64,000 nucleotides of DNA from Patescibacteria group bacterium (GCA_022564195.1 JADFLW010000003.1:12747-76746); one strand, 5' to 3'. Numbered from the stretch's first letter, positions 2,796 to 63,956 are shown. The notes: generated by a model from the sequence alone, not told the origin. Program-made: numbers and translations.

Positions 2796-3098
2796 AACCA
2801 AACAACTCGAAGATATCCTCTATGTTGCCCAACTTGCCGCGATGGAAGCAGGCGATTATGCCCTGGAACATTTTATGAGGGTGCATGTCTTAAAAGAAAA
2901 ACCGATGTCAATAGATGAGGTGACCTCATGGCACGTCGCTTCGATCACCCAGCCGGAGCGCTTTTCATCAAGGAAGTAGGAGGGAAAGTTTCAGATACAG
3001 AAGGAAGACCCATCGATTGGAGAGAAACGAAACCGGTCCACATCGTTGCCAGTAACGGCACAATTCACAAGCGATTTTTACAAGTTCTCAAGGAGTAG
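2782..3098 (+). pseudogene. inositol monophosphatase (SuhB/IMPase family) remnant with internal deletion and frameshift
   Basis: An N-terminal fragment (frame 1, about 48 aa, 'ILYVAQLAAMEAGDYALEHF...DEVT') and a C-terminal fragment (frame 3, 2928-3098, 'GALFIKEVGGKVSDTEGRPIDW...IVASNGTIHKRFLQVL') both look like IMPase. Only about 105 of the expected ~260 aa are present. Confidence 0.45.
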
Positions 3099-6117: not shown

Positions 6118-7005
6118 ATGCAACTTACCATAATTATCGTAAGCTTCAACACCAAGGATCTCCTTAGAAAGGCAGTGAAGTCAATACCCACAAAGCCCGA
6201 TTGGGAAGTGATCGTCGTTGACAACGCCTCAACCGATGGATCCGTTGAGATGCTCAAAGAGGAATTTCCTGGTGTAAAGCTCATCACAAACAGCGAAAAT
6301 CTAGGATTTGCCAAAGCAAACAACCAGGGGATCAAAACGTCCTCTGGGAAATTTGTTCTACTGCTGAACTCAGATACCCAAGTGAAAAAGGATGCATTAG
6401 AGCAGCTGGTTGAGTTTATGCAAAAAAATCCGCAAGTTGGCATCGCAAGCGGGCAACTGTTAAATCCCGACGGATCCATACAACCGCAAGGAGGTTATCT
6501 CCCACACCTTTCCAATATAGCCTTCTGGATGCTGTTTATCGATGACATCCCCGCGATTGGTAAGTATCTTTGGCCATATCACATCACCGATCGTAAAAAA
6601 TTCACAACAGAGCGCCGAATTGGGTGGGTCGGGGGAACAGCAATGATGATAAAAAGGGTAGTCTTGGAAAAAGTTGGGCTACTTGACGAGGAAATTTTCA
6701 TGTACGCCGAAGATGTTGAGTTCTGTTTAAGAGCGCAGGAAGCAGGTTTCCTCGTTGCGATCTCCCCTTTGTCAAAAATCATCCACTACGGGCAGCAAAG
6801 CAGTGGCGGAGCTCCTTCTGCTGCGTGGCTGGGGGAGTACAAGGGGATAAAATACATTTTCAAAAAACACAAACCTAGCTGGGAATATCCCATCGTGAGA
6901 TTGTTGTTGAAACTCGGAGCACTACTGAGGATGGGCATCTTTGGTATACTTCAAGGCAGAAAGGACGCGTATGAAGCGTATAAAAAAGCTCTTCAGTTGG
7001 CTTGA
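6118..7005 (+). CDS. glycosyltransferase family 2
   Basis: 'IIIVSFNTKDLL...VIVVDNASTDGS' GT2 N-terminal signature with DxD-type motifs. Confidence 0.75.
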   Translation: MQLTIIIVSFNTKDLLRKAVKSIPTKPDWEVIVVDNASTDGSVEMLKEEFPGVKLITNSENLGFAKANNQGIKTSSGKFVLLLNSDTQVKKDALEQLVEFMQKNPQVGIASGQLLNPDGSIQPQGGYLPHLSNIAFWMLFIDDIPAIGKYLWPYHITDRKKFTTERRIGWVGGTAMMIKRVVLEKVGLLDEEIFMYAEDVEFCLRAQEAGFLVAISPLSKIIHYGQQSSGGAPSAAWLGEYKGIKYIFKKHKPSWEYPIVRLLLKLGALLRMGIFGILQGRKDAYEAYKKALQLA

Positions 7006-32474: not shown

Positions 32475-32529
32475 TAAAGGGGAAGGGAGGTGGTTGGGAA
32501 GCAAAAATAGCAAAGAAGCGTGTGGTCCC

Positions 32530-32735
32530 GATAGCGCTGGCGCTTATCGGGAATACGAGGAAGGGGGATCCCCCGACATCACGTCGGGGGGATCGGACTC
32601 CCGGTGTAAAATACCGGGGAGAATCTGCGGAGACCCCCTGGTTGTTCGGCCAACCACAACGGACGGATCAAAACCTCGCAGTAATGTGGGAGACAGAGTC
32701 CAACCGAAGCCGAAAGGGTTTTCTTCATCCCTAAT
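32530..32735 (+). ncRNA. glmS ribozyme: candidate glmS ribozyme (GlcN6P-responsive self-cleaving riboswitch) in the glmS 5' leader
   Basis: In the order seen in the Bacillus glmS ribozyme: 'AGCGC' (cleavage-site region, about 32533), 'ACGAGGA.GGGGG' (32554-32566), 'ACUCCCGG' (about 32597-32604) and 'AAAGGGUUUUCUUCA' (about 32714-32728). Compare GACGAGGA, CCUCCCGGCUG and GUAAGGAUUUCUUCA in Bacillus. It lies about 100-300 nt upstream of glmS. Confidence 0.5.
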
Positions 32736-32823: not shown

Positions 32824-34605
32824 ATGTGTGGAATTTTCGGATACGTAGGTCACCAAGAAGACGCAGCCGACATCGTCTTTGAGGGCTTAAAAAGATTGGA
32901 ATACCGCGGATACGACTCTTGGGGAATTGCGGTCAAAAAGCCAGGAACGGGCAGCAAAAATACCTTTGCGATCAGGAAAAGAACGGGAAAGATCGGAAAC
33001 GCCAAGGTCAGTGACCTCCCCAAAAGCAGCTTTGGTTTAGGACACACGAGGTGGGCAACCCATGGTGGGGTAACCAAAATTAATGCCCACCCACATACCG
33101 ACTGCACAGGTTCCATTGTCTTGATCCACAACGGCATAATCGAGAATTACGAAAAGTTGAAAAAGAACCTTATAGCCCACGGCCACCGTTTTGTGTCCGA
33201 AACAGATAGCGAAGTTGCGGTCCATTTGATTGAAGAGCTCAACAAAACCTGCTCATTCACAGAGGCAGTTCGCAAAGCTTTTCTTAAGTTGGAGGGCTTA
33301 AACGCCATAATCGTCATGCATCCGCGAGCGCACACATTTGTTGGGGTCCGGAACGGATCGCCACTTGTCGTTGGTTTGGGAAAGGGAGGAAACTACCTTG
33401 CCTCAGATGCTGCCGCTCTCCTGCCTCACACCAAGAAGGTGTACTTTTTAGAAGATAACGATTTGGTGGTAGCAGACGCAGAGAATGTCCAAATCATCGA
33501 GGTGAAAACGGGGAAGAGAAAGAAGATCAAGCCGCGTACGCTTACCTGGAGCATAAAGCAAGCTGAAAAAGGGAAGTACCCCCATTTCATGATCAAAGAA
33601 ATTCATGAACAGCCGTCCATACTCTCTGAGATTGCTTCGAGTGGTCTCTCTAATGCCAAAAAGCTCAGCAAACATATCGATCAGGCCTTCGACACCTACA
33701 TGGTGGGCTGCGGAACCGCTTCATATGCCTGTATTGCAGGTTCCTACCTTTTTTCCAAAATCGCCAATCGTCATATCAACTGGGCTGTTGGAAGCGAATT
33801 CGGATATCAGCTAGACTTTTTAACCCCAAAAAGCCTGGTTATGGCACTCTCTCAATCTGGCGAAACAATAGATACACTTGAAGCGGTGAAGAAAGCGAAA
33901 GGGAAAGGCGCAAAGATTTTTGCACTTGTCAATACACTTGGGTCGTCTCTGTATCGTGAAGCCGACTATTCAATGCTCATTGGTGCAGGACCAGAGAAAG
34001 CCGTCGCCTCCACAAAAGCCTTCACTGGAAAGCTTGCCCATCTGGTGCTTCTTGCATACGCTCTGGCCGGCAAACCAAAGAGTGGTCAATCGACACTCTT
34101 GAAAGCCGCAAAGGCAAGCAAGACAGTCCTCACTCCTGAATCTAGGGCGAGGATAAAAAAACTCGCGGAGAGGATGAAAAACAAAGAGCACATCTATGTT
34201 ATTGGAAGAGGCTTATCGTACCCCGCGTCGCTAGAAACCGCATTAAAAATCAAAGAGATCTCCTACATCCATGCCGAAGGATTCGCGGCTGGAGAATTGA
34301 AGCACGGCGTGATCGCGCTTGTCGAGAAAGGTACCCCTTGCATTGCCTTTTTACCTAACGATGAAACGTATGGTGCCAATCTCGCTGGCGCGATGGAAAT
34401 GAAGGCCCGTGGCGGCTCCATCATCGGGATTTCCCACAAGCCGCACGAGGTCTTTGATTTCTATATTCCAGTGGCAGATGCTCAAGAAGCCACGATCATT
34501 CCCAATGTCATCGTCGGTCAAGTCTTAGCCTATTATCTCGCGATCGCGCGCGACCTCGACCCCGACATGCCCCGCAACCTCGCTAAATCCGTAACGGTGA
34601 AGTAA
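32824..34605 (+). CDS. glmS: glutamine--fructose-6-phosphate aminotransferase
   Basis: 'MCGIFGYVG' Ntn-amidotransferase start followed by two SIS domains. Confidence 0.9.
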   Translation: MCGIFGYVGHQEDAADIVFEGLKRLEYRGYDSWGIAVKKPGTGSKNTFAIRKRTGKIGNAKVSDLPKSSFGLGHTRWATHGGVTKINAHPHTDCTGSIVLIHNGIIENYEKLKKNLIAHGHRFVSETDSEVAVHLIEELNKTCSFTEAVRKAFLKLEGLNAIIVMHPRAHTFVGVRNGSPLVVGLGKGGNYLASDAAALLPHTKKVYFLEDNDLVVADAENVQIIEVKTGKRKKIKPRTLTWSIKQAEKGKYPHFMIKEIHEQPSILSEIASSGLSNAKKLSKHIDQAFDTYMVGCGTASYACIAGSYLFSKIANRHINWAVGSEFGYQLDFLTPKSLVMALSQSGETIDTLEAVKKAKGKGAKIFALVNTLGSSLYREADYSMLIGAGPEKAVASTKAFTGKLAHLVLLAYALAGKPKSGQSTLLKAAKASKTVLTPESRARIKKLAERMKNKEHIYVIGRGLSYPASLETALKIKEISYIHAEGFAAGELKHGVIALVEKGTPCIAFLPNDETYGANLAGAMEMKARGGSIIGISHKPHEVFDFYIPVADAQEATIIPNVIVGQVLAYYLAIARDLDPDMPRNLAKSVTVK

Positions 34606-51496: not shown

Positions 51497-51572
51497 GGGC
51501 TCATAGCTCAATCGGCAGAGTGCTTCGTTCACATCGAAGAGGTTCCAGGTTCGAGTCCTGGTGAGCCCACCA
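51497..51572 (+). tRNA. tRNA-Val: tRNA-Val (anticodon CAC), CCA encoded
   Basis: Manual cloverleaf. Acceptor GGGCTCA/TGAGCCC. D-arm GCTC..GAGT. Anticodon stem CTTCG/CGAAG with loop TTCACAT. T-arm CCAGG-TTCGAGT-CCTGG. Discriminator A followed by CCA. Confidence 0.8.
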
Positions 51573-51910: not shown

Positions 51911-52006
51911 AGGAAATTCTTCTTAGGGAAAAAAGAAACCAAATAAGAACGCGTGTATGTAGGGATTGAAGAGAAAGAGAAAGCCAAACCCCAAAAAGGG
52001 GAGGTG

Positions 52007-52199: not shown

Positions 52200-53639
52200 T
52201 CAGCTCTCCGCAACAGCTGCTGGGCGAGCAGGAGCCGGACGTCCGAGCCCGAGCTCCTCGGCGTAGTAGGTGATCGGTTTATCCCTCGTCTCCCTGATGA
52301 GGTCCTTTTGGGCGAACACCCACCGATTGGTAGCCTCATTGCCATTCCAGTAGACAGCTTTCACCCGCTTGATTTCGTCATACTGATCACTGGTGGTAAG
52401 GTTTTTAAGCTTCCGGCACTTCGACCTACCCACATTGATCTTCGGATGGTCAGCTAAAGGGTTGTCGGTGAACAACCACAAGAGAGTCGAGAGCGAAAGC
52501 ATCTTCTCCCGAGCAAAGTAGGCTTCGGTGGTCTGCTCCCCTCCTTGCTCATAGAGAACGTCGACGATGAGTGTCAGGCTTCGTTCCTTGCCGTCTCCGT
52601 TCGGCCGCGAGTCCCTGTACTGGCCTTTGATCGCCAGAAGCTCTGTGCCAAAGGCGATTGATTGGACGGAAATGGCTCCCGGAATCCAAGGCTGGCCTTC
52701 GGTTTTGAAGTCGCCTTCCGTTCTGAAGACCGGGCTGCGGGAATGGCCCTGGACGACCTTCGTCCCCGAGGTCTTGATCGCGATCACGCGTTTCCCGGAA
52801 GCCGTCAGCCGCCGAGCGCGCTTGATGAAAAACTCTCCCATCTGCACCCAGGCGAACATCGGGGTGACCCCTTCTGGCGCAGCATAGAGCTCCACTCGAG
52901 GATCTTCCAGATGGCCCATGAACAGCATATCATCGCTGAGGTCCGTGTAGTCCTCTTCCCGCTCTCCGGCGATGCAGGCCATGAGATGAAAGTCTGAGTA
53001 CTGATCCTCCTCCATCATCAACATCGCTGCCCTAAAAATCGCCCGTAGATTCATGGTCTTGCCAACTCCACCTGGACCGGCAATCCATAGACCGTGGCCT
53101 TCGCCGAGCGGCCATCCGCCACGGAAAATGATCCCGAGGACAGGTTCGTACTCTTCGTCCCAGGAAACCCGGCGATCGAAGTAGTCGAGTGGAAGAGGTT
53201 TGTTGGGATAGCGGCCGAAGATCTTGTTCTGATCCTCCTCGTCCGGCTTCGCAACCAAAGTGGGCCAATTTCGGACCACCGCAGCGTCCGTTTCCCCGTT
53301 GACGGAAATGATCTGAGTGATAGGGTCCGGAGGAACCTCTTCCTCGTTGTCGGATCTGCTGCTCGATCTGTCAGGCGGCTCCCGATAGAGGATAAGATCC
53401 CCTTCCCGTAATCCCCACAGCTCCACAGTAGGGGAAGGAATGAATCGGCCCCTTGCAAGGGACTCAGCAAAAATCTCACTCCTGGGGAATTTCGCCAACT
53501 TCTTGGCGTTTGGCGGGATGACCACCGTATCTGGAGTTCCCCATTTGCCGTATACAGGTCTCTGGCTCTGAGGGAGCTCCGAGAGGGGTCGTTGTAGTAC
53601 CAACCCACGCTTCGGTTTATCATCTTGTGTACTCAACAC
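52200..53639 (-). CDS. P-loop NTPase (island gene A), function unknown
   Basis: Walker A 'GPGGVGKT' in mid-protein and a candidate Walker B 'LTLIVDV'. The start is re-set to GTG at 53637-53639, because the conserved hairpin+SD leader motif ('GGAAAGGAG' + 8 nt) sits immediately upstream. The ORF-track ATG at 53699 lies inside that leader. Confidence 0.55.
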   Translation of the reverse strand: MLSTQDDKPKRGLVLQRPLSELPQSQRPVYGKWGTPDTVVIPPNAKKLAKFPRSEIFAESLARGRFIPSPTVELWGLREGDLILYREPPDRSSSRSDNEEEVPPDPITQIISVNGETDAAVVRNWPTLVAKPDEEDQNKIFGRYPNKPLPLDYFDRRVSWDEEYEPVLGIIFRGGWPLGEGHGLWIAGPGGVGKTMNLRAIFRAAMLMMEEDQYSDFHLMACIAGEREEDYTDLSDDMLFMGHLEDPRVELYAAPEGVTPMFAWVQMGEFFIKRARRLTASGKRVIAIKTSGTKVVQGHSRSPVFRTEGDFKTEGQPWIPGAISVQSIAFGTELLAIKGQYRDSRPNGDGKERSLTLIVDVLYEQGGEQTTEAYFAREKMLSLSTLLWLFTDNPLADHPKINVGRSKCRKLKNLTTSDQYDEIKRVKAVYWNGNEATNRWVFAQKDLIRETRDKPITYYAEELGLGRPAPARPAAVAES

Positions 53640-53648
53640 AAGTCTTTC

Positions 53649-53678
53649 TCCTTTCCTAGTGGGCCTCAGGCCCAACCG
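53649..53678 (-). promoter_or_regulatory. conserved leader hairpin + SD motif (copy for gene A)
   Basis: Gene-sense 'CGGUU-GGGCC-UGA-GGCCC-ACUAGGAAAGGAG'. A degenerate second copy lies at 53721-53750. Confidence 0.5.
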
Positions 53679-53996
53679 GTCAGTCCGTTTTCCAGTCATT
53701 GCTGGATTGGGAACAGGCTACCCTCTAGTAGTGGGCCTCTGGTCCAAAAGGAAATCTCTAGAGAGCATTCCGTTCCCAATCCGTACGCGTTCTTATTTGG
53801 TTGTCAAGGAGCTAATGCGAAGCATAAGCTCCGCACCCGCCAATATTTTTCGAGGGAGTATACGGCTGACTAAGCAGTAAGCCGACCATCGATAAAATAT
53901 GGTGGGAAAGTGCTATCCCGCTCAAGCGGGATCCAAATGCCCGCCCCAACAAACGCCAAATGTCTGTTTGCAGGCGTCTTATAAATTGTCAATTTT

Positions 53997-54063
53997 CCTC
54001 TGTTTCGCCCTCCGTAGCTTTAGCGTAGGGGGCTCATCAGTCAGCCTTTGGCTGAAACAGAAA
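53997..54063 (-). ncRNA. hammerhead ribozyme, type III (HHR-1)
   Basis: Gene-sense 'UUUCUGU U|UCAGCC-AAA-GGCUGA CUGAUGA G-CCCCCUACGC-UAAA-GCUACGGAGGG-C GAA ACAGAGG'. Canonical CUGAUGAG...CGAAAC core. Stem III UUUCUGU/ACAGAGG, stem I UCAGCC/GGCUGA, GUU cleavage triplet. Confidence 0.6.
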
Positions 54064-54225
54064 ACAACACAACAAAATCAAACTACAACCCCCTTCACAC
54101 AAACAAACAAACAAACAATTCATCAACCCCGCAAATGGGATTGAGATGTCTGCCGAATTTCGGTGAAGAGAGGGTGAGGGAGGGATCCCAAACTTCGGGA
54201 TCCCATTCCCATGTCAACGTCCCTC

Positions 54226-54576
54226 TTAGGACCGCCACGGTCTTCGGCCTATCCATTCGGCTGTTGGGAGGTCATTCCCGCGCCATCGTCCGTTGGATCG
54301 CAATGGATCCTCATTGACGACCTGACGTAAAAGCCCAATGGAAAGGGCGATCGCGCCGATGATGCCAACGAAAACGGCCAGGAAGCTCGAAACCAAACGC
54401 GAGAGTAGTGGAATGGACTCCACCAAATCTCGCTGAGCCGACGTTAACTCGCCGCCCGACGGAAAGCCAAATGCCGCAAACACATGAAGCGCGAATATGC
54501 CTCCCAGGAAAGGTAGGAGCAAATGAGGCCGATGAAAAGTGCTAAATGGACTCGGAAGTACCAGTCCGAAAACCAT
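54226..54576 (-). CDS. small two-TM membrane protein (pilin/VirB2-like topology)
   Basis: 116 aa. GAGGAG SD 8 nt before the ATG. Hydrophobic N-terminal segment, polar loop, second TM helix. Confidence 0.4.
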   Translation of the reverse strand: MVFGLVLPSPFSTFHRPHLLLPFLGGIFALHVFAAFGFPSGGELTSAQRDLVESIPLLSRLVSSFLAVFVGIIGAIALSIGLLRQVVNEDPLRSNGRWRGNDLPTAEWIGRRPWRS

Positions 54577-54677
54577 TTCGGTACGCTCCTCTCATTCGGC
54601 TCTTTCCTCTTAGCTCCCAAAGGAGCACGTCCGCGATTCTTGCCGTTTCCCGCGATCCAACCCCTCAAAGTGATCAA
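54444..54677 (-). CDS. possible small one-TM ORF (TTG start) overlapping the previous gene in another frame
   Basis: Preceded by a perfect copy of the conserved hairpin+SD motif ('CGGUU-UGGCC-AGA-GGCCA-ACUACGAAGGGAGG'). Overlaps the 54226-54576 gene by 132 nt, so one of the two is probably mis-modelled. Confidence 0.2.
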   Translation of the reverse strand: MITLRGWIAGNGKNRGRAPLGAKRKEPNERSVPKWFSDWYFRVHLALFIGLICSYLSWEAYSRFMCLRHLAFRRAAS

Positions 54678-54680
54678 ATC

Positions 54681-54716
54681 CTTCCTCCCTTCGTAGTTGG
54701 CCTCTGGCCAAACCGG
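54681..54716 (-). promoter_or_regulatory. conserved leader hairpin + SD motif (copy for small ORF)
   Basis: See the leader-motif finding. Confidence 0.45.
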
Positions 54717-54914
54717 ATACTGGAACGCTTCATTGGGCGATTGATCCCGAATGAAGGATAAAACGGATAAGTCCGGGAGGAGCAGGTTCGAGAGAACCCA
54801 ACTCCTCTTTTTTTGGCTAGCGCCGATCAGATCAAGAGCAAGAGCAATGCATACCCCAGCCATTTCAACTGAACGTTTTGGAACATGATCGCTCCTTCCA
54901 TCGAATCGTCGTGA

Positions 54915-56537
54915 CTAAGACGACGAATCGTTCTCATCAACCTCTCGGAGTTGAGACGGTCTGGTTCGACCGCCTGACGATTTCCCGCGACGAAGCCGTA
55001 GCGAGACGCGCCCCCGTGACACCGCGGTATCCCCCGACGCCAAAGCGCTATCGTCGACTTCGCGTAGGGTAGAGGATCTCTTCGCCGGCTGCGCAACCTC
55101 CGGTGGTTGAGCCACATCCGTGACCCGATCCACCACAGTCGGCTGCAGTTCACGATACTTCTCTTGCACGTATCGCGCCTCGATGTCGGCGATGTGCCAT
55201 CCCTGACCGAGCAACCGGGCAAACAGCCTGAGCGTAATACCAGAGCGAAGGCAGAACGCGATCGCGTCGTCCCTCTCAAGACCAGCGTCTTCGATGCGCT
55301 TACGCTTGTAGAAGGTATCGCTGTCCCACAGCGCTTCGAGCTCTGCGCGAAATTTCGCGTTGTCTTGCTTGAGCTCGTCAAGCGAGCGGGTGATCACCGG
55401 ACGGCCCGGGAGTTCATCAGAGAACTCCTCCTGAACCTCCGCAATGGTGACCCCAGGCATAGCCAGTTCTTGCCCGATCTCGAAGCCTTCAAAGCTCCAA
55501 TGATCGGGATCCTCGACTGTGGCCTCGTCAATCGTGGAGGGTTCTGCCTTGATCCGAAGCAGGGCGTCGTAATGAACCATCACTGCCTGGAAAGCCTCCT
55601 CCGCCTGCGCATCGGTCGCGCCTCCAGCAAGGGCCTCCACTCCAGCTGCATTCGCTCGACTCTCAGCTGTGCCTCGAAGCTGTAGCATGAACGCTGCGCG
55701 TCGTCGAATCTTGCCCCGAGCATTCATGAAAGCGACGGCATTCTCCCTGTAGAGAGCCAAGTCGTGTGCCCGTGGCCCGGCCCTGGAGGGGAAGCTCAAG
55801 CTCATGACATCCTCTTTCTGGAATCTGCGCTTGTTCCACCACTTCCTGAGTCGACTCGTCTTGATATCATTATCGAGCAGGTCAGGATCGGTGCGGGCCA
55901 ACACGTCTTCGATCATCGTCGTCGGCGTCGCCGAGATATACATATCCTCCCCGGCCTTGAATAGGCTGGGAATGGTGACACCGCCTTTGCGATGTCGCAT
56001 CTCATCAGTGTAGATGAGATACCTGTCTTGGCGTTGCTGCCAGCGAAGGACGTGGTACGTAAGCGTCGGCGTGAGGAACGCAAGCACAGGCCACGCCCAA
56101 AACGCCATCCCCCATTCGGGGGCCGATGGGTCGATCAACTTGAAATCGGGGACGTCTGGCGAAACCGTGATCGCCGCTACAAATGCGCCCAACGCCAAAT
56201 TGATGAACGACACCGTGACAGCCAGGAGAAACGGCCCAAAGATGCTAAAACCGAAGGCGAAGGGAGACCATTTGAGAAACTCCGGCCAAACGTACGCCTT
56301 CTTGCTCATTTCCAGCACCTTTTCAAGCCTAACTCCTGCCTCGAGTTCGCGCGTCCGCTTCTTCTCACTCACGAGGAAGAAAAAGTCGAAGACACGCTGG
56401 ATCACCTTCTCCCCGAAAGGGAAGATCATCAGTGTTGCAGAGAAGATGATCCAGACGCAAACCACGATGATGGCAAGGCCAACATACGCGGCTGCATCCG
56501 ACGGAAGTACCTCTGAAAGGAACTCTTCGAACGTCAC
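54915..56537 (-). CDS. membrane protein with N-terminal TM bundle and large cytoplasmic domain (island gene B)
   Basis: 540 aa, with 3-4 N-terminal TM helices and no P-loop. GTG start (complement 56535-56537) 8 nt after an AAGGAG SD that lies within the conserved leader motif. Confidence 0.5.
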   Translation of the reverse strand: MTFEEFLSEVLPSDAAAYVGLAIIVVCVWIIFSATLMIFPFGEKVIQRVFDFFFLVSEKKRTRELEAGVRLEKVLEMSKKAYVWPEFLKWSPFAFGFSIFGPFLLAVTVSFINLALGAFVAAITVSPDVPDFKLIDPSAPEWGMAFWAWPVLAFLTPTLTYHVLRWQQRQDRYLIYTDEMRHRKGGVTIPSLFKAGEDMYISATPTTMIEDVLARTDPDLLDNDIKTSRLRKWWNKRRFQKEDVMSLSFPSRAGPRAHDLALYRENAVAFMNARGKIRRRAAFMLQLRGTAESRANAAGVEALAGGATDAQAEEAFQAVMVHYDALLRIKAEPSTIDEATVEDPDHWSFEGFEIGQELAMPGVTIAEVQEEFSDELPGRPVITRSLDELKQDNAKFRAELEALWDSDTFYKRKRIEDAGLERDDAIAFCLRSGITLRLFARLLGQGWHIADIEARYVQEKYRELQPTVVDRVTDVAQPPEVAQPAKRSSTLREVDDSALASGDTAVSRGRVSLRLRRGKSSGGRTRPSQLREVDENDSSS

Positions 56538-56540
56538 ATC

Positions 56541-56576
56541 TCACACTCCTTCGTAGTGGGACTCTGTCCCAACCGA
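56541..56576 (-). promoter_or_regulatory. conserved leader hairpin + SD motif (copy for gene B)
   Basis: Gene-sense 'CGGUU-GGGAC-AGA-GUCCC-ACUACGAAGGAG'. Confidence 0.5.
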
Positions 56577-56624
56577 ATGAACCATACGCGTCGTTGCGCG
56601 TGGGCTCGAAAATGAACCCGACGG

Positions 56625-56683
56625 AGTCGGGGCCACATTAGAGCCCACTGCCTGACACGCAGGCACTCTCTACGAATGATCAA
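56625..56683 (-). repeat. conserved leader block (copy 1 of 2)
   Basis: About 85% identical to 60808-60852: 'TCGGGGCCACAT.AG.GCC.AC.GCC.GACACGCAG..ACTCTCTA'. Confidence 0.5.
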
Positions 56684-56782
56684 TTCCCATCTTTCCTTTC
56701 TATAATCTTGTTGTGTTGTCAAAGTGCGTATCCCTCGCCCGTATACCACGCTCGCATTGAGCAGGTTTGAGTTTGGAATGTA

Positions 56783-56854
56783 TTCTGTTTCGTCCCTCCA
56801 TAGCTTATTAGCGACGGGGGACTCATCAGGTCCGACGTATATCGGACGACAGAA
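56783..56854 (-). ncRNA. hammerhead ribozyme, type III (HHR-2)
   Basis: Gene-sense 'UUCUGU C|GUCCGA-UAUACG-UCGGAC CUGAUGA G-UCCCCCGUCGC-UAAUAA-GCUAUGGAGGGA-C GAA ACAGAA'. Perfect 6-bp stem III, 6-bp stem I, canonical GUC cleavage triplet. Confidence 0.65.
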
Positions 56855-56943
56855 AAACACAACAAGTAGAGCGAGGGGGGGAGAAGCAAGATGGGTGGGT
56901 GGACCGAAGGTCCACCCCTGTAGCGAGCGTTCGCTACCCCATC

Positions 56944-58407
56944 TCACTTCACCGTTGTTGCCGCGCAGGTCCCAAGGACCAACCACGGGTCCATCCAACC
57001 CCGATTCATCTCTCCGTAGAGAACGAAGTCATCGGGATGCTGATCGGAAACCCCGATATGGACATGCGATCCAGCATCGGGATTCTCAGAAGAAGGCTTC
57101 GGATAGACGTCGCCGGTATTGCCGCACTCGCCGATCTTTTGGCCTTTCTTCACCTTCCTTCCCGGGATCATCAAGAACGCCTTCTTGTCAAGGTGGGCGT
57201 ATACAACGTAGATCCCACCATGATCGATCCAGATATGCTTTCCGAACCCGGTGATCCCATCCATGAGCGTACCGGACGAGGGCTTGATGATCTTCCCGTC
57301 CGCGAGAGCCACGATCGGATCGCCTGTCGAACAGTCGAAGTCTCCACCGTAGTGGATGATGATCTTCTTGTGTCCATCCTCGTCTTCGACCTCGCGTTCT
57401 TCGAGCCACTCCCCAGTCACTACGATTGGGAAGCCTTCCGGAAACGGCGCTTCAAGAAACCCCGTCACTTCCGGCAGGAGCCCGAGCGCATCCAGGAGGT
57501 CGATGATCCATTTCCTGAGGAAGTCAAACATTCCCCAGTCAACGGTGTCTTCCGACCCTCCCGTGCCGATGACGCCGACGTCCCCAACGAGAGCATTGAT
57601 CTCTGCAGCCCTATTGACCAGGACTCCGACATAAACAAAGTCGCAGTTCCAACTGCAGTACAACGCATCGATCTTCTCTTTGCGAGACAGATTCGCTCTG
57701 TAGCCGATGGCATGCAACCAGGCGGGGATCGCGTGGAAGGAAACCTTCTCAGACCAGAAGTCACAACTTCGAACTTCGTCGTCGTTGCTCTTCTTCAGAT
57801 ACTTCTGGCAGACGATCTTCGCCGTTGTCGGTAGCCAACCGCCCCGACCCATCTCTCCGGCGCCACAGTGGCTTATGTAGCCCCCGTAGCCCTCGTAGAT
57901 ATAGGCGCGGGCGATCGGATTGCGATCCCGGACATCGTGTTTGCGCCAGTGTCGCATCATCCACCGGGCAGCGGCTAACTCCTTGCGAAGTTGCCGAGGG
58001 TTATGACCCCAGCGCTGCTTGATGCTCGATTGCCAGTCGCAGGAGCCCATGTTGTTCCCACTCGCGGATTCAAACTGCTCGATCGTGAGCAGAATGCCGA
58101 TGTCGATGTTGGCGCCGAAGCGGCGGTTACACCATAAACGCCCGGCCTCGGCATTCGCCACGGCTGAGGGAGAAAATCCCAGGGATGCAACTCGCTCCTG
58201 ATCCTCAGGGGACAGGGCAAAGTCGTATCCGCCGCAGCCGAGTCCCAACCAACGACTAACGATCTCGTTGTAGGAGTTGGGAAAGGTGGCGTGGGCGTAC
58301 CACGCGAACATGATCCCGGTAAAGGAACCGAAAATCAACAGAGGTACGCCCATCAAACTCACCAGCCCGATGAATCTACGCAGGAGTCGTTGTCCTGCAT
58401 TCATCAT
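56944..58407 (-). CDS. membrane-anchored cell-wall hydrolase with C-terminal M23 (LytM) peptidase domain (island gene C)
   Basis: N-terminal TM segment. C-terminal 'HYGGDFDC.TGDPIVALADGKII...HIWIDHGGIYVVYAHL...GECGNTG...GSHVHIGV' matches the M23 HxxxD...HxH pattern. Translationally coupled to gene D, 9 nt downstream of its stop. Confidence 0.7.
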   Translation of the reverse strand: MMNAGQRLLRRFIGLVSLMGVPLLIFGSFTGIMFAWYAHATFPNSYNEIVSRWLGLGCGGYDFALSPEDQERVASLGFSPSAVANAEAGRLWCNRRFGANIDIGILLTIEQFESASGNNMGSCDWQSSIKQRWGHNPRQLRKELAAARWMMRHWRKHDVRDRNPIARAYIYEGYGGYISHCGAGEMGRGGWLPTTAKIVCQKYLKKSNDDEVRSCDFWSEKVSFHAIPAWLHAIGYRANLSRKEKIDALYCSWNCDFVYVGVLVNRAAEINALVGDVGVIGTGGSEDTVDWGMFDFLRKWIIDLLDALGLLPEVTGFLEAPFPEGFPIVVTGEWLEEREVEDEDGHKKIIIHYGGDFDCSTGDPIVALADGKIIKPSSGTLMDGITGFGKHIWIDHGGIYVVYAHLDKKAFLMIPGRKVKKGQKIGECGNTGDVYPKPSSENPDAGSHVHIGVSDQHPDDFVLYGEMNRGWMDPWLVLGTCAATTVK

Positions 58408-58416
58408 GCACCGCCA

Positions 58417-60717
58417 TCACCACTGGCGTCCGGTGACATTCAGGATGCTGTCCGGAATGTCGTTGATCAGGTTGTAGTACACTTCGTCCCGATCCACCGG
58501 ATTCCGCACGATGATGCGGTAATACGGCATCTTCCGGAACCAGAGTTCCAAGGGGAAGGATTCGGCAAACCCCTCGATGAACGCCTTGACCTGATCGACC
58601 GTGTGCGCCGTAGCCACGAACCAGATGCGATCCTTATGGATCCCGTCCAGGGCATACACGCACCAGTCGCGTCCTCGCATGCCGATATCGTGGGGGATCA
58701 TGCCCAGCTCTTCATGCTTAGTGAGCGCCGGCCAGGCGTAGATGTCTTCGATGGTCAGCGAACAGATCGGGGGCGTCGGCCACTCATAGCCGGCATACCC
58801 GGTCTCCCACTCCTCATACTCGGGCGTCACTCCCTCGATATCGTCGGGCGGGACTGCCCAGTTCCTGAAGCGGAGGTTGAACTCCTCCAGATCAGCGAGC
58901 ACGTAGTGGGAGTAGGCGAAACTCTTGATCGAAGGCATGAGAAGCTCTGGCATACCGACGAACTTGCCCGTCTTCCACCATTGCTTTGCCTTGGCTTGAA
59001 CCCGGGCGCGTGCCTGCGCTTCTACCTTGCGCATCAGTTCCATCTGGTCCTCGACGGTGTGCGCATCTGCGATGCTCACCACGTTGATGTCACCACCGTG
59101 GTGCTTGACCCAGTTGATGGCACCCTCTTGCCTGGCAGTCGTCAAGGCAACACGCTTGCCGAAGGGGCCGACCTGGTTGCCGCCGAGGGCAGCGTCCCAA
59201 GTGGTCTTCCCGCGTTCACCTTTGCCAATGAGCAGGAGATGTTTGTAATTCTCCCGATCGATGAAGACCGGATGCCCGGTCTCCTCGTCTTTGCCCCAGT
59301 AGTGGGTACCCTGGATCTCGCCGATCCCGTTGACCGTCGAGACCAGCCCGTGCAGCAGCTCATCAGCACCAGTCGTAACCGTGTGCCGGAACCGAGTCAG
59401 GGGATAGTCCAAGATCGGATCCAGTGGCGGTGCCCCAGGAATCATTTTCCGGAACGCCTTCTGCAGCTGGTCAAACAGCCCCGTGACTCTGTGCCACTCT
59501 CCCAGGTTGCTGAGCCTGAGCTCAACATCGTCGAACTTGGGCATCCGCCCGTTTTCGATCTGGGAGGAGGTGCGGAGGAGCGTCGTGATGTACAGCTCTC
59601 GGGATTGAAGATCACCCTCAAACCACGGCAGCTTGACGCGCTCACACTGAATCCAGATGTCCAGATCCAGCTCCGGGTCAAGTAGATCCTGCAGAAACTC
59701 GTGCGGGAACGGACCCTTCCAGATCCTGTAGGCGCGATCGCCCAAGATGTAGTAGTCATGCCGCCATTTCGGGCGGATCGGGCAAGCAACCTCCAGGGGA
59801 GGCAGTGGTCGTTCAGCCAGCTTGATCGGCCGGCGGTGAATCACCGAGTGCAGGAACGAACCGAACAGCTGATAGGGCAGCACCAAGCCGCCCATCGCCG
59901 CCGAAGTCCCGCGACTACCGATGAACGCACCCGAGAGACCAGTAATGATCAGGTTCCTCTCGTAGAGTTCCTTCCCATCATAGCCCTGTTGGTAGTCACC
60001 CAGGGCAGCGTCTTGGATCTCGTCGATCAGAATCTTATAGGGGCGATTCCCCTGACGCCTGATCTCGTCCAGATGTCTCTTGAAAGGTTCCACGATCATC
60101 GGCGAGTTGAGAAGGAGCATGGTGATGACGTTGCCAAGATGGGAGTCACCCCAATGGTGTAACATCAAGTTGATACCCGCCACCACATGACGTGTGCCGT
60201 CCTCGTCAGGCACGGTATATCCGTGCTGGAGCGGTCGATTGTGAAACACAACCGATCGCCATTTCTTGCGAGTTGCGGTCGGATCGCTGTCAGCCTTCTT
60301 TCGCCAATTGGATGGCCAAAGGCGAGCCAGAGTGGCAAACAGTCCTTTTCGATCCGAAAGCTCGAGCGGAGCGACCATCAGCATATTGCCGTAGCGTGTT
60401 TCTGCGGTCGCGCGAAGCCCCAAGATTTCTTCAGCGGTTCCCTCGTCAACATTGGGATCCCTTTTCTTGCGGGCTGAGATCCTCAGCGGTTCACGCTGAG
60501 GTTTGCTCCCCATTTTCTCTTCCATTACGGAAGGAAGAAGGGGCGCCGGTGTCCTCACTCCCCGAGCGAGCATATGGCCAACCTCTGGCAGTTCCGGCTC
60601 TGGTTGTTCCAGATCCGGTTGTACCGCCTCCGGTTGTTCCACACTGTGGTCAGCCTCTGGCTGTGGCTGTACCACAGTCCCGTCAGGGTGAACCTCTGCC
60701 TGTGCGTCGGTATTCAT
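58417..60717 (-). CDS. large P-loop NTPase (VirB4-like or SF3-helicase-like; island gene D)
   Basis: 766 aa from ATG 60715-60717, 4 nt after an AGGAGG within the conserved leader. Walker A 'LLLIGKGERGKTT' at about residue 500, with candidate Walker B 'NVVSIAD' or 'YVLADLEE'. Acidic Pro/Glu-rich N-terminus. The ORF-track start at 60828 is an upstream extension through the leader. Confidence 0.55.
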   Translation of the reverse strand: MNTDAQAEVHPDGTVVQPQPEADHSVEQPEAVQPDLEQPEPELPEVGHMLARGVRTPAPLLPSVMEEKMGSKPQREPLRISARKKRDPNVDEGTAEEILGLRATAETRYGNMLMVAPLELSDRKGLFATLARLWPSNWRKKADSDPTATRKKWRSVVFHNRPLQHGYTVPDEDGTRHVVAGINLMLHHWGDSHLGNVITMLLLNSPMIVEPFKRHLDEIRRQGNRPYKILIDEIQDAALGDYQQGYDGKELYERNLIITGLSGAFIGSRGTSAAMGGLVLPYQLFGSFLHSVIHRRPIKLAERPLPPLEVACPIRPKWRHDYYILGDRAYRIWKGPFPHEFLQDLLDPELDLDIWIQCERVKLPWFEGDLQSRELYITTLLRTSSQIENGRMPKFDDVELRLSNLGEWHRVTGLFDQLQKAFRKMIPGAPPLDPILDYPLTRFRHTVTTGADELLHGLVSTVNGIGEIQGTHYWGKDEETGHPVFIDRENYKHLLLIGKGERGKTTWDAALGGNQVGPFGKRVALTTARQEGAINWVKHHGGDINVVSIADAHTVEDQMELMRKVEAQARARVQAKAKQWWKTGKFVGMPELLMPSIKSFAYSHYVLADLEEFNLRFRNWAVPPDDIEGVTPEYEEWETGYAGYEWPTPPICSLTIEDIYAWPALTKHEELGMIPHDIGMRGRDWCVYALDGIHKDRIWFVATAHTVDQVKAFIEGFAESFPLELWFRKMPYYRIIVRNPVDRDEVYYNLINDIPDSILNVTGRQW

Positions 60718-60757
60718 ACGACCTCCTAATGGGTAGTCGGCCTCTTGGCCGAACCGA
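60718..60757 (-). promoter_or_regulatory. conserved leader hairpin + SD motif (copy for gene D)
   Basis: Gene-sense 'CGGUU-CGGCC-AAGA-GGCCG-ACUACCCAUUAGGAGG'. Confidence 0.5.
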
Positions 60758-60807
60758 AAGACTTTTCGCGTCATTGCGCGATTGGCCCAAAAATGATCCC
60801 GACAACG

Positions 60808-60852
60808 TCGGGGCCACATCAGGGCCAACCGCCCGACACGCAGACTCTCTAG
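60808..60852 (-). repeat. conserved leader block (copy 2 of 2)
   Basis: See 56625-56683. Confidence 0.5.
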
Positions 60853-61010
60853 GAGATCTCAAAAATCCAATAATTCCTCGCTCTATTCTTGTTGTGTTGT
60901 CAAAGTGCTATCCCGATGAGATGTCGGGATTTCATTGCCCGCATACGCAAACGCTTCTCGTTCACAACGCGGGCCGTAAATAACTCAGGTTGTCAAGTTT
61001 GTCTGTTTCG

Positions 61011-61082
61011 CCCTTCGACTGCCTGTCCTACTGACAGTCCGCTCAGGGGCTCATCAGGTCCGACGTATAGCGGACAACAAAC
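61011..61082 (-). ncRNA. hammerhead ribozyme, type III (HHR-3)
   Basis: Gene-sense 'GUUUGU U|GUCCG-CUAUACGU-CGGAC CUGAUGA G-CCCC...(extended stem II)...GAAGGG-C GAA ACAGAC'. Stem III GUUUGU/ACAGAC with a G-U pair. Stem I covaries with HHR-1. Confidence 0.6.
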
Positions 61083-61242
61083 AAACACAAACAAGAAGAA
61101 GCGACACTCTCTACCAAAGACAAAAAACCAACAAACCAACCCCGCTACTGGGATTGAAAAGGTTCTTTGCTTGAGCAAAAGAGTGAAGGTGGATAGAGAG
61201 GGTTCAAACATCGAACCCCCTCCTATCACCTGTGCATTCCCA

Positions 61243-61626
61243 CTAGCCATCCTTCCCATCTTGGCGTTTCGCCAACGTCGCTCGGTCCTCTGGACCTTGA
61301 CCACGGGTGGTGAAGATCCGTTGAAGGGTAACGTCCCGCTTCAACAGGGTGTCGAACGGCTTGGCCCGTCTGTTGCTTTTCCTCGCCTCAATCAGATGCG
61401 AGTTCGTCTCCCAAAAGAGGTGTAGGAAAAACAAGCTAACATAGGCCATTGCGATAACGGCACTCACCACCGTGATCAACGGTAAGTCGCCTTCGAGGAG
61501 AAGGCTCATCTCGTTGTACACGAGGAGCAAGTCAGAACCGACCAAGATAAGTAGGACGGCCCGTAACCGCATTGGGTGGGAAGTATCCACAAGCCAGTAG
61601 TGAACTGACCTGACTCGCTCATACAT
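61243..61626 (-). CDS. small two-TM membrane protein, translationally coupled to gene E
   Basis: 127 aa. The ATG overlaps the gene E stop (ATGTATGA). GGGAGGT SD upstream. Confidence 0.4.
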   Translation of the reverse strand: MYERVRSVHYWLVDTSHPMRLRAVLLILVGSDLLLVYNEMSLLLEGDLPLITVVSAVIAMAYVSLFFLHLFWETNSHLIEARKSNRRAKPFDTLLKRDVTLQRIFTTRGQGPEDRATLAKRQDGKDG

Positions 61627-63397
61627 CGCTCACCTCCCGGAGATAGCGCGATGGCCCTTGCCGCTTTCGAGGCTGGGAACGTTGAGCCCGTACTGGACGA
61701 GCCACGTTTTCCTCCATAGGGACATCTGCGGATTGGCGCAGCTGCCGTGTACGCCGACGCTCGTCCACCGATCTCGTCACATGGACTATCGCGCCAGTTG
61801 CCCACTTTGCAGGCCTAAGCTGCGGATTGATTTTGGCAGCGATGTCAGCAGCCGTATCTTGCACTTCAAAGTAGCGAAGCGGAAGCCTTCTCATGCGTTC
61901 CGCAAACCCAGGAGATTCCTCTCGGAAGCCCTCAGGCCGAGCAGACGGATCCCGTAGGATACCAGCCTGTCCGTCGACGGAATCGTCAGCCATCCAAGCA
62001 CTGCCGGGCTGAGAGACAGATCCGCTCACGCGTCCGACTCCCGGTTGACGGAGCGCCCCAGGCTGATCGCCAGTGCGTACCCTTCCGGGAGCTCGAGTAT
62101 CGCTGATACCACCAGCACTTCCTTGAGATGCGGAAGCAGTCGGCCTTCGAAGACGACTCCCGAACTGGAGGGAAACCTTGGTCTCCTCTTCCTTCCGGGA
62201 GAGCGATCTGGATCCAGCTCGCCTGCCGCGATATCGACCGGTCGGACCGGTCGCACGGGAACCTGGGGTTCCCCTCACCGGCCCTCGACGACTTCCTCCT
62301 TTCGCATCGCGCAAGCCACCCAACCTGTCGCCTGGCTTTCCCTTCGTACCAAGAGGTGGGTCCTTGGAAGGACTGCCTTTGTCCGAGGGAGCAGGAGGCA
62401 CCATCGGCCCGGGTGGCGGAAGCCGCGCTTGGCCAGAGCGTTCGTCGCGGAGTCGCGCTTGGCTCGGTCCACCAGTAGGGATTGGCCCTGTAGTAGCGGT
62501 GGCCGTTGCGGTTGTGGTCCGCCGATAGCGTCTCACGTCAACGCCTCGCAGACCAGCGACGCCAGCCGCGTCGAAGCTCCGCAGCGTGCTGCGTCGCCTT
62601 CTGCCTTCTTGCGCTTGCACTGCCTGTCCCTCTGCTTCCTTGAAGGAGGTGACTGGCGCAAACACCAGTGCGATGACCGGCAGTATGACGTAGCAGATGA
62701 GCTGCGTGAGTCCGAGCACCCAGGCATAGAGCCCGATGTTGGCGGTCTGTGTCGAGATTGGTCCTACTTCCAGCGTCGGAGTCCCGCTGACCAGAAACGT
62801 GATCATGCTGAACCCCCAACTGAAAAGCAGCCAGCCGACAACTTGCGCTACCCAAACATTCATGGGTCTCGTGTTACCCACGATCACGGTGGCGAAAATC
62901 GCAACCACGTACGTCAGCAGCATAATGGCCTGAACGTACCGGTGGATCAACGCAACATTGAGGATAACCCCCACCAGCATTGGCGCATTCACGATGTCGG
63001 CGATTGAAGGGCTCGTCAAGCCAAACGCTTCTGCGATCGAAAAGAGGCTGATATCGTCAGGTTGAAGTCGCGACCCGACCAGGGTGAGCGCCGGGATGAC
63101 AGCCCCCACAAACCCTGCCCCGAAGGTGAGGATCTGCCATTTGATGACACCTCCTGTGTCCTGTCTACTTGCCGCCTGCAGCGCCTTGTACGTCGCCAAC
63201 GGCACGAGAATGAGCAGGATGCGAGTCAACCTCCGATATTTCTCAAGATCCGGTTTCAGAAACCAGAGCCCGAGCCACTTCTCGTTGATCGCTCTCAGGA
63301 TATCTCCGATAGGACCGAGAGGTTCCTCACTGCTGCACGCGGCGAGAATCAACCCACCAAGCATCAGCAGCAGGAGAGACAGCGCCTTGCGTTTCAT
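61619..63397 (-). CDS. polytopic lipoprotein with long disordered Arg/Gly/Pro-rich C-terminal region (VirB6/TrbL-like topology; island gene E)
   Basis: Lipobox 'LILAAC'. About 6 TM helices in the N-terminal half. Low-complexity 'RGxRG/PGxxG' tail. 'TTTATATATTGP' Thr-rich run. Confidence 0.55.
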   Translation of the reverse strand: MKRKALSLLLLMLGGLILAACSSEEPLGPIGDILRAINEKWLGLWFLKPDLEKYRRLTRILLILVPLATYKALQAASRQDTGGVIKWQILTFGAGFVGAVIPALTLVGSRLQPDDISLFSIAEAFGLTSPSIADIVNAPMLVGVILNVALIHRYVQAIMLLTYVVAIFATVIVGNTRPMNVWVAQVVGWLLFSWGFSMITFLVSGTPTLEVGPISTQTANIGLYAWVLGLTQLICYVILPVIALVFAPVTSFKEAEGQAVQAQEGRRRRSTLRSFDAAGVAGLRGVDVRRYRRTTTATATATTGPIPTGGPSQARLRDERSGQARLPPPGPMVPPAPSDKGSPSKDPPLGTKGKPGDRLGGLRDAKGGSRRGPVRGTPGSRATGPTGRYRGRRAGSRSLSRKEEETKVSLQFGSRLRRPTASASQGSAGGISDTRAPGRVRTGDQPGALRQPGVGRVSGSVSQPGSAWMADDSVDGQAGILRDPSARPEGFREESPGFAERMRRLPLRYFEVQDTAADIAAKINPQLRPAKWATGAIVHVTRSVDERRRTRQLRQSADVPMEENVARPVRAQRSQPRKRQGPSRYLREVSDV

Positions 63398-63401
63398 GGC
63401 G

Positions 63402-63956
63402 CTACCGTGGAGCTGCCGGTTCCGCGAACTCCTGAGTGAAATGGTCGATGATGTTCACTCCTCGAGGGGGCAGGAAGCTGTCGAAACCGATCAGTTCACC
63501 CGCGATCCCGATGACGATGATGATCCCGACCATGATCCCGATCCAGGTGCCTATGGGCGAAGGTGCGCCTGCTGCCGTCGGTCTCCTCACGTTTAACGGC
63601 CCGAAGAAGACCGCATAGAGAATAACCAACACACCGGCGACGATGACGTACCAGTGAATTCTCAACAGAAATCTCTCTTCGTCTTCACCTTCCTGCAGCA
63701 AGACGCCCATGAGCAAAATGCCCGTGAACGCCGTTGCCTGCAGACGCGTTCCAGAAATGGGGCCATAGTTACGCTCCCCGATTCTGGCGAGATCGATCCT
63801 CGCTGTCAGCCGCTGAAGCGGTTTCAGCAGAAGGATCGCGATCGTGTAGAGCAAAGCCAACACGATCAACGGGTTGGGCTCAAGCAGAAACTGCACAAGC
63901 CCCGAAAATGGGGTGGAAAGCATCGCCACTCCATGAGCAAAAAGTGTGTCCAACAT
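63402..63956 (-). CDS. small polytopic membrane protein (island gene F)
   Basis: 184 aa with 4 hydrophobic segments. AGGAG SD 8 nt upstream, preceded by a covarying leader hairpin. Confidence 0.45.
   Translation of the reverse strand: MLDTLFAHGVAMLSTPFSGLVQFLLEPNPLIVLALLYTIAILLLKPLQRLTARIDLARIGERNYGPISGTRLQATAFTGILLMGVLLQEGEDEERFLLRIHWYVIVAGVLVILYAVFFGPLNVRRPTAAGAPSPIGTWIGIMVGIIIVIGIAGELIGFDSFLPPRGVNIIDHFTQEFAEPAAPR

Follow-up and report, generated by a model that had tools for sequence, protein, structure and literature searches.

A 64,000-nucleotide (nt) stretch of DNA from a Patescibacteria group bacterium (GCA_022564195.1 JADFLW010000003.1:12747-76746; hereafter the window, with positions counted from its first letter) carries a cluster of minus-strand genes coding for a VirB4/TrwK-like ATPase, an M23 peptidase, a RecA-type P-loop ATPase and several hydrophobic proteins. 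Three type III hammerhead motifs (HHR-1, HHR-2 and HHR-3) are located in the spacers of this cluster; these are exactly the type III hammerheads of the 64-kilobase (kb) window, all on the minus strand and all with complete cores. By all sequence and structure criteria save the Rfam score, the three sites are genuine type III hammerhead motifs. Sequences other than the window are referred to by L numbers.

Three hammerhead motifs in the cluster spacers

53996-54064, minus strand: HHR-1, in the spacer between the small open reading frames and gene E; predicted cut after 54056 (GUU, then U)
56783-56854, minus strand: HHR-2, in the spacer between gene B (M23 peptidase) and gene C; predicted cut after 56848 (GUC, then G)
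60997-61086, minus strand: HHR-3, upstream of gene A; predicted cut after 61076 (GUU, then G)

Each motif is organized in the same order, with the 5' strand of stem III ending in U16.1, then H17, a closed stem I hairpin and CUGAUGA, followed by a closed stem II (G10.1 first and C11.1 last), GAA, and A15.1 with the 3' strand of stem III. The core CUGAUGA ... GAA is read in all three copies, as are the A15.1-U16.1 pair, a non-G H17 (triplets GUU, GUC and GUU) and an A after GAA. HHR-1 has stem III UUUUCUGU/ACAGAGGA with U at H17, stem I UCAGCC-AAA-GGCUGA, the core CUGAUGA, and stem II GCCC...GGGC followed by GAA. HHR-2 has stem III UUCUGU/ACAGAA with C at H17, stem I GUCCGA(U)...(G)UCGGAC and stem II GUCCC...GGGAC, and HHR-3 has stem III GUUUGUUUGU/ACAGACAAAC (up to 10 base pairs [bp]) with U at H17, stem I GUCCG...CGGAC and stem II GCCC...GGGC. 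The core-adjacent pairs are U-A, G-C and G-C at N1.1-N2.1 (HHR-1, HHR-2 and HHR-3, respectively) and G10.1-C11.1 in all three, with a stem II of 4 to 5 bp up to the first irregularity; Perreault et al. (2011; PMC3088659) accept a candidate as a hammerhead when it has these core-adjacent pairs and two or more bp in stem II. The topology is type III in both the descriptor scan and unconstrained folds, with stems I and II closed by loops and stem III open. Fast cleavage at physiological Mg2+ calls for a tertiary contact of loop I with loop II, or for a pseudoknot; by inspection, loops I and II of the window copies have no Watson-Crick loop-loop complementarity, a reading that covers canonical contacts.

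Direct reading agrees with a first-pass annotation of the window in placing the core and stems on the minus strand at all three sites, in the triplets GUU, GUC and GUU, and in the location of the motifs between co-oriented genes. That annotation had named a stem II unable to pair next to G10.1-C11.1 as grounds for rejection, and every copy has this pair and a stem II of 4 to 5 bp. Its range for HHR-3 (61011-61082) needs correction, as it excludes GAA-ACAGAC; the true end is at 61001 with a 6-bp stem III or 60997 with the full stem.

A descriptor specifying the core, the A15.1-U16.1 pair, H17 other than G, and stems I, II and III of at least 4, 3 and 4 bp, respectively, matches only HHR-1, HHR-2 and HHR-3 on both strands of the 64 kb, and has no matches in 200 block shuffles of the window; the bare pattern CUGAUGA-N10-40-GAAAC has a chance expectation of 0.39. 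In unconstrained folds with flanking sequence included, the three-way junction is the minimum-free-energy fold of all copies tested. When the input is limited to the exact motif coordinates, HHR-1 and HHR-3 again have the junction as their minimum-free-energy structure, and in HHR-2 it is recovered as the centroid. Fold energies are 2.4 to 4.9 standard deviations below those of shuffles (z-scores of -3.0, -4.9 and -2.4). The first-pass annotation had proposed a hit above the gathering threshold of Rfam model RF00008 (clan CL00010; 48.5 bits) as a check, and here all three copies fall short: in E-value mode, HHR-1 scores 37.3 bits (E=3.7e-5), HHR-3 reaches 20.5 bits, aligned in a wrong register, and HHR-2 is absent from the RF00008 listing even at E<=10. 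A copy in the related locus L048 is also under the gathering score, at 34.3 bits. With the copies below the curated threshold, the case is carried by the anatomy and by comparative evidence.

Conservation and covariation in related loci

Protein A matches two sequences in a word-indexed search of 5.8 billion proteins, also with a profile query, and 56 among 1.84 billion cluster representatives; no relatives were found in IMG/VR, GTDB species representatives or JGI metagenomes. Three other metagenome assemblies contain near-identical versions of this cluster, ribozymes included. Six further lineages (L001, L040-42, L039, L044/45, L049 and L048), whose A proteins are 22 to 46% identical to that of the window, also have a hammerhead in the spacer preceding A. 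L001 (A 46% identical) has the core CUGACGA with a minimal stem II, GACC-AAAA-GGUC; stem I is UCCCGC/GCGGGA in L040/41/42 (A ∼31% identical), and A of L044/45 is ∼22% identical. The L048 copy upstream of A runs off the contig start, and a second L048 copy follows the M23 gene, like HHR-2. The same ∼100-nt hammerhead-bearing sequence is thus found at both ends of this 3.9-kb contig (1-102 and 3758-3859), reflecting either two identical ribozyme copies flanking the VirB4-M23 pair (a collapsed repeat) or a circular contig.

A covariance model, R1, was trained on six copies (HHR-2, HHR-3, L001, L040, L048 and L049). On the window it scores HHR-2 at 81.8 bits and HHR-3 at 72.2 bits, both being training copies, and among untrained copies it scores HHR-1 at 45.3 bits (E about 1e-10), L044 at 52.6 bits and L039 at 52.0 bits. 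Over 416 kb plus 52 kb of sequence it finds only boundary hammerheads, barring one 13.7-bit match in L046 (E=0.81). The R1 alignment comprises 11 distinct sequences, and 96.3% of its cells hold standard pairs, versus 24 to 52% with the partners slid by 1 to 3 columns; fitting to R1 somewhat inflates the pairing, and the slid controls and hand-read stems (UCAGCC/GGCUGA, GUCCGA/UCGGAC, GUCCGAU/AUCGGGC and UCCCGC/GCGGGA) agree with it. Both sides have changed in 6 of the 16 stem pairs, and the covariation score is 0.368 versus 0.146, reached by none of 500 shuffles. The compensatory stem differences that the first-pass annotation had seen between window copies are therefore borne out and joined by covarying stems in six other lineages, and its assignment to type III is supported beyond the case it made, by canonical cores, compensated stems and syntenic orthologues.

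Gene content of the cluster

61243-63956, minus strand: upstream unit of three genes, coding for proteins of 184, 592 and 127 amino acids that are hydrophobic by eye
58417-60717, minus strand: gene A, 766 amino acids, VirB4/TrwK-like ATPase with Walker A motif GKGERGKTT
56944-58407, minus strand: gene B, 487 amino acids, N-terminal hydrophobic segment and Peptidase_M23 domain
54915-56537, minus strand: gene C, 540 amino acids, no family match
52200-53639, minus strand: gene E, 479 amino acids from a GTG at 53639, RecA-type P-loop ATPase

Protein A has no matching Pfam family. Its AlphaFold model (predicted local distance difference test [pLDDT] score, 78.9) is matched by Foldseek to TrwK/VirB4 of R388 (8rtd_O/7o43_B; E values of 2.8e-12 to 1.3e-11, probability 1.0) over its full length, with about 800 aligned columns, and HerA, FtsK and EccC are far behind. 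Residues 1 to 85 of the model have pLDDT values below 50, and the 5' part of the gene contains three tandem 15-nt repeats (60584-60641) encoding a Pro/Glu-rich N-terminal region. Gene B likely codes for a cell wall hydrolase, judging from its domains. Homologues of E carry PF00006 (ATP-synt_ab) and E itself is a weak match to Rho; its structure model (pLDDT, 40) is too poor for use.

The related loci are organized similarly, with three hydrophobic proteins, a spacer of ∼250 to 450 nt, A, the M23 peptidase and a ∼500-amino-acid protein in that order. An M23 peptidase gene follows A in every locus fetched, and the gene after B codes for ∼490 to 580 amino acids, similar in length to C; in L044 a PF00006-type ATPase gene is next after the ∼500-amino-acid protein. 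The modeled VirB4 fold of A points to a rare, type IV secretion-like cluster, which also includes the M23 hydrolase and the putative membrane proteins. No relaxase or VirD4 family, the mark of a conjugative element, was matched among nine proteins, family scans found no integrase, phage or defence families, PADLOC and PHROGs returned nothing besides the M23 domain, and tblastn of A against plasmid and phage collections gave no match. Related clusters are located beside housekeeping genes on 155-kb and 349-kb contigs, and are thus chromosomal in at least some lineages. The regulatory motifs of the cluster match those of candidate division WWE3. Upstream of the cluster, beyond the right end of the window, a four-gene block (462, 110, 142 and 64 amino acids) is tandemly duplicated (L050 1-2114 and 3262-5678), and spacer elements of ∼140 nt are repeated (L002 2440-2590 and 5480-5620).

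A box and anti-box flank each gene unit

A box on the 5' side and a reverse-complement anti-box on the 3' side, with unit-specific, covarying extensions, enclose gene units of 2 to 6 kb.

61084-61102, minus strand: anti-box, 3' arm of the 184/592/127-amino-acid unit, GCUUCUUCUUGUUUGUGUU; the HHR-3 cut is 8 nt past its end
60876-60908, minus strand: box, 5' arm of the A-B unit, GCACUUUGACAACACAACAAGAAUAGAGCGAGG
56856-56878, minus strand: anti-box, 3' arm of the A-B unit, CCCCUCGCUCUACUUGUUGUGUU; the HHR-2 cut is 8 nt past its end
56705-56727, minus strand: box, 5' arm of the C-D unit, GCACUUUGACAACACAACAAGAU
54064-54078, minus strand: anti-box, 3' arm of the C-D unit, AUUUUGUUGUGUUGU; the HHR-1 cut is 8 nt past its end
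53785-53802, minus strand: variant box, 5' arm of the E unit, AACCAAAUAAGAACGCGU
51937-51954, minus strand: anti-box after gene E, 18/18 complementary to 53785-53802; no hammerhead follows, and it is the last element before a compositional junction

The anti-box corresponds to a G/U-rich tract upstream of each hammerhead. For HHR-1, HHR-2 and HHR-3 alike it directly adjoins stem III on the 5' side, so that 7 nt plus H17 separate its end from the cut. The anti-box at 61084-61102 has its counterpart box just past the window end (L002 6451), with 18 of 19 positions complementary and one bulge, and that at 56856-56878 has 21 positions complementary to the box at 60876-60898; each of these is the best match among four boxes. 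The anti-box at 54064-54078 is complementary to the box at 56705-56719 at 14 of 15 positions, a score that ties with the A-B box and so is not unit specific.

The arrangement extends across lineages. In seven of eight loci, the best whole-locus reverse complement of the box upstream of A lies just after the M23 gene, and the sequences differ by lineage (for example, GCGCAAUAGGAAAA/UUUUCCUAUUGCGC and UACAACAGGAAGAUCU/AGAUCUUCCUGUUGUA; the L044 arms are at 2531-2551 and 6504-6524). The WWE3 loci with enough downstream sequence (L006, L008, L009, L012 and L015) are arranged in the same way, with the arms 2.3 to 5.6 kb apart. The box pattern GCACNTTNANAACACAACAAGA is found in 8 genome stretches (7 candidate division WWE3/Patescibacteria assemblies) and in 26 metagenome loci, and these 26 loci contain no hammerheads. 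In the window and in L003 to L036 the box is always located after a hairpin and before a structured leader, about 100 to 130 nt before the start codon. Reading the box as a sigma-70 promoter was rejected: it has a TTGACA-like hexamer, but no -10 element at 16 to 18 nt, and a promoter scan found none there. The plus-strand segment 51925-52112, considered as a truncated rightward leader, is better read as the anti-box of the E unit.

The arms may act either by RNA pairing or at the DNA level. RNAduplex comparisons of the tract 5' of each hammerhead with the downstream leader are no better than shuffles (z-scores of -1.8 to +1.8); G/U-rich tracts pair with anything.

Spacer layout and leader elements

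61136-61157, minus strand: terminator-like hairpin ∼50 nt upstream of HHR-3, its tail rich in U and G
54123-54144, minus strand: its twin, upstream of HHR-1
60784-60850, minus strand: conserved 67-nt hairpin in the leader of A, following the box; a copy upstream of C (56603-56669) is 81% identical
53648-53674, 54685-54710 and 56546-56570, minus strand: small hairpins right before the Shine-Dalgarno sequence; also 53723-53753

All spacers share a 5' part in which a strong hairpin after the stop codon is followed by a second, terminator-like hairpin, the G/U-rich tract and the hammerhead. In the 3' part the hammerhead is followed by a hairpin, the box GCACUUUGACAACACAACAAGA, a structured leader and a small hairpin before the Shine-Dalgarno sequence. 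Each downstream gene has its own conserved leader of 250 to 360 nt, this being also the distance from cut to start codon. Within the 67-nt leader element a hairpin, CCCGAC...GUCGGG, is nested inside an outer stem that covaries (UGGCCC/GGGCCA at 60784-60850 versus GGGCUC/GAGCCC); the U-rich tail after the inner hairpin indicates that it could be attenuator-like. The pre-Shine-Dalgarno hairpins (GGGAC-AGA-GUCCC, UGGCC-AGA-GGCCA and GGGCC-UGA-GGCCC, each followed by ACUAnGAAGGAG) also have a covarying stem, and their positions suggest true starts at GTG 53639 for E and at TTG 54677 for a 77-amino-acid gene. The distal part of stem II in HHR-1 (54012-54030) and HHR-2 (56797-56818) reads CGCUAA(U)AAGCUAYGGA and resembles the hairpin CGCGUAAAGCUACGGA just after the box in the WWE3-type locus L012 (∼2985-3010) and also in L029; this likeness may reflect a shared structural or protein-binding module.

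Junction with the flanking DNA

The G+C content jumps from ∼48% to ∼57% at 51.9 to 52.0 kb, roughly 15 nt or less from the stop codon of a cupin gene, which itself lies between the junction and a tRNA-Val(CAC) gene at 51497-51572. The left 52 kb contains a cell wall/cell division cluster, glmS and IleRS, and is without the regulatory motifs of the cluster, which could be either foreign to this flank or joined to it by misassembly. Classical integration at tRNA-Val was rejected, as the cupin gene intervenes and no att-like direct repeat or integrase is seen. There are also tRNA genes a few kb upstream of the cluster in L001 (3185-3546) and L040 (409-557), which may be a coincidence or a hint of tRNA-associated insertion. 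In the left flank, a glmS ribozyme (32506-32716, plus strand; 55.8 bits, above its gathering score) precedes glmS (32824-34605) in the ordinary, known arrangement.

Proposed role of the ribozymes and alternatives

We consider it probable that these are genuine ribozymes that self-cleave when the spacers of the secretion-like cluster are read through, separating neighbouring units. Read-through of the spacers, cleavage in vivo and its effect are proposed by analogy, from hammerhead chemistry and from the prophage clusters in which it has been tested. As polymerase reads through a spacer, the motif would fold into its three-way junction and cut itself after H17, at 61076, 56848 or 54056 on the minus strand. 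The upstream unit would be left with a 2',3'-cyclic phosphate beside its own anti-box, and the downstream RNA would begin with a 5'-OH on the paired stem I hairpin and retain its own long leader. Since the cut falls 8 nt past the anti-box, and the box is in the leader of the same unit, cleavage would separate one unit from the next. The likely benefit would be that the RNA ends, stability and expression of each unit are independent of its neighbour.

Several observations weigh against this proposal. At Rfam gathering thresholds the whole window yields only a tRNA and the glmS ribozyme, with no hammerhead. The terminator-like hairpins lie 40 to 60 nt upstream of HHR-1 and HHR-3, so that little RNA may reach the ribozymes. 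The hammerhead is missing from the A site in L043 and L046, which keep the box and anti-box, and it is therefore dispensable. Stem II junctions are non-consensus in L044 (2435-2502), with an extra A between A9 and G10.1, in L039 (2782-2855), with A residues on both sides, and in L049 (7768-7837), with a G10.1-U11.1 wobble, and these variants may be slow or inactive. Mismatches between the arms show no excess of G-U (6 G-U versus 11 A-C) and so lend no support to pairing at the RNA level.

A more specific version, which we put forward tentatively and regard as possible rather than probable, is that the unit is composed of box, genes and anti-box, that its arms pair in the RNA, and that the hammerhead makes the 3' end that closes this 5'/3' panhandle. 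The cut would then also keep the anti-box from mispairing with the near-identical box of the next unit ∼150 nt downstream.

It is unlikely that the ribozyme serves the downstream gene only, trimming away upstream RNA so that the following mRNA begins at a defined 5'-OH capped by the stem I hairpin, with the adjacency of the anti-box incidental. Such a role would resemble that of the synthetic RiboJ insulator, in which a hammerhead in the 5' leader sets the 5' end of the downstream message. It is favored by the conserved hammerhead, which is always upstream of the VirB4-like gene, and by the first nucleotide after the cut, which is paired in the 5- to 7-bp stem I. There is also a natural parallel in the HHphage hammerhead of haloviruses HF1/HF2, located in a 5' leader 13 nt from the start codon, with a transcript 5' end within 3 nt of the cleavage site (PMC3088659). 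However, a downstream role does not account for the anti-box ending a constant 8 nt before the cut in HHR-1, HHR-2 and HHR-3, and the conserved leader elements start 60 to 190 nt past the ribozyme. HHphage and RiboJ are near the start codon, whereas the cuts here are 250 to 360 nt upstream of it, before a conserved structured leader.

Production of circular mRNAs is very improbable. The RNA between two hammerheads (A-B, 4,228 nt; C-D, 2,792 nt) would be ligated by the ribozyme or by an RtcB-type ligase, with the ends brought together by box/anti-box pairing or a hybrid stem III. The units do have complementary arms, and the inner stem III CUGU/ACAG is common to all copies, such that a 3' end left by one copy could base-pair to the 5' body of the copy before it. 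RtcB accepts 5'-OH and 2',3'-cyclic phosphate ends, the chemistry expected here. Most lineages, however, have one hammerhead per cluster, so circles are not the conserved function, and the box is 100 to 190 nt inside the 5' end rather than at it. Perreault et al. raised circularization for clustered hammerheads but found no circular or spliced products when they sought them (PMC3088659).

It is similarly improbable that the motifs are inactive relics, or passengers copied with duplicated spacer modules: the HHR-2 and HHR-3 spacers share several blocks of 81 to 89% identity, spaced about 4.2 kb apart, the L048 copies are identical over about 100 nt, and L043 and L046 have no hammerhead, but every catalytic core position is intact in the window copies, L040 and L048 (L001 differs only at variable position 7), stem changes are all compensatory across lineages with 22 to 46% identical neighbour proteins, and HHR-1 has diverged in all three stems with every pair kept, which is not expected of neutral relics.

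Relationship to known systems and significance

Self-cleavage between units, the reading we prefer, has its closest precedent in prophages. Co-oriented hammerheads are clustered between genes in prophages of Agrobacterium tumefaciens, Clostridium scindens and Azorhizobium caulinodans, and such clustered, gene-flanking hammerheads cleave in vitro and in vivo, with a proposed role in converting long transcripts to gene-length RNAs (Perreault et al., 2011; PMC3088659). The window is similar in having several co-oriented hammerheads within a few kb, between genes or small gene blocks. It differs in its VirB4/M23 secretion-like setting, with no integrase or phage gene seen, in the retention of the site upstream of the VirB4-like gene across deep divergence, and in the hammerhead abutting an anti-box. 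The window copies share with RF00008 hammerheads the core C3-U4-G5-A6-N7-G8-A9 ... G12-A13-A14, the A15.1-U16.1 and G10.1-C11.1 pairs and the open stem III, but have a long stem II (25 to 41 nt), and stem I GUCCGA.../...UCGGRC is conserved within the present group.

Long-range stems process the 5' and 3' ends of rRNA operon transcripts, and the 5' and 3' untranslated regions pair in icaR and hbs mRNAs. The units described here are similar in having complementary, covarying ends, in this case in the box/anti-box sequences alone, but differ in that the arms are 14 to 23 nt, are common to many units and have a common core, AACACAACAAG.

As gene-flanking clustered hammerheads were described in 2011, the ribozymes themselves belong to an established class, and what is new is the conserved secretion-cluster setting and the box/anti-box geometry. 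A literature search found no paper linking hammerheads to Patescibacteria, the candidate phyla radiation or type IV secretion, and reviews offer only hypotheses for the function of genomic bacterial hammerheads (PMC6765202). A whole bacterial subgroup escapes the Rfam type III model at its curated threshold. Within this subgroup the ribozyme has been held at one defined spacer while the neighbouring proteins diverged to 22 to 46% identity, and natural losses, duplications and junction variants are open to mutual comparison. Its fixed 8-nt relation to a covarying, unit-flanking inverted repeat leads to specific predictions of RNA ends. If the panhandle proposal is true, it would give a bacterial hammerhead a concrete cellular job and would imply a genome-wide mRNA end-pairing system in WWE3-like Patescibacteria.

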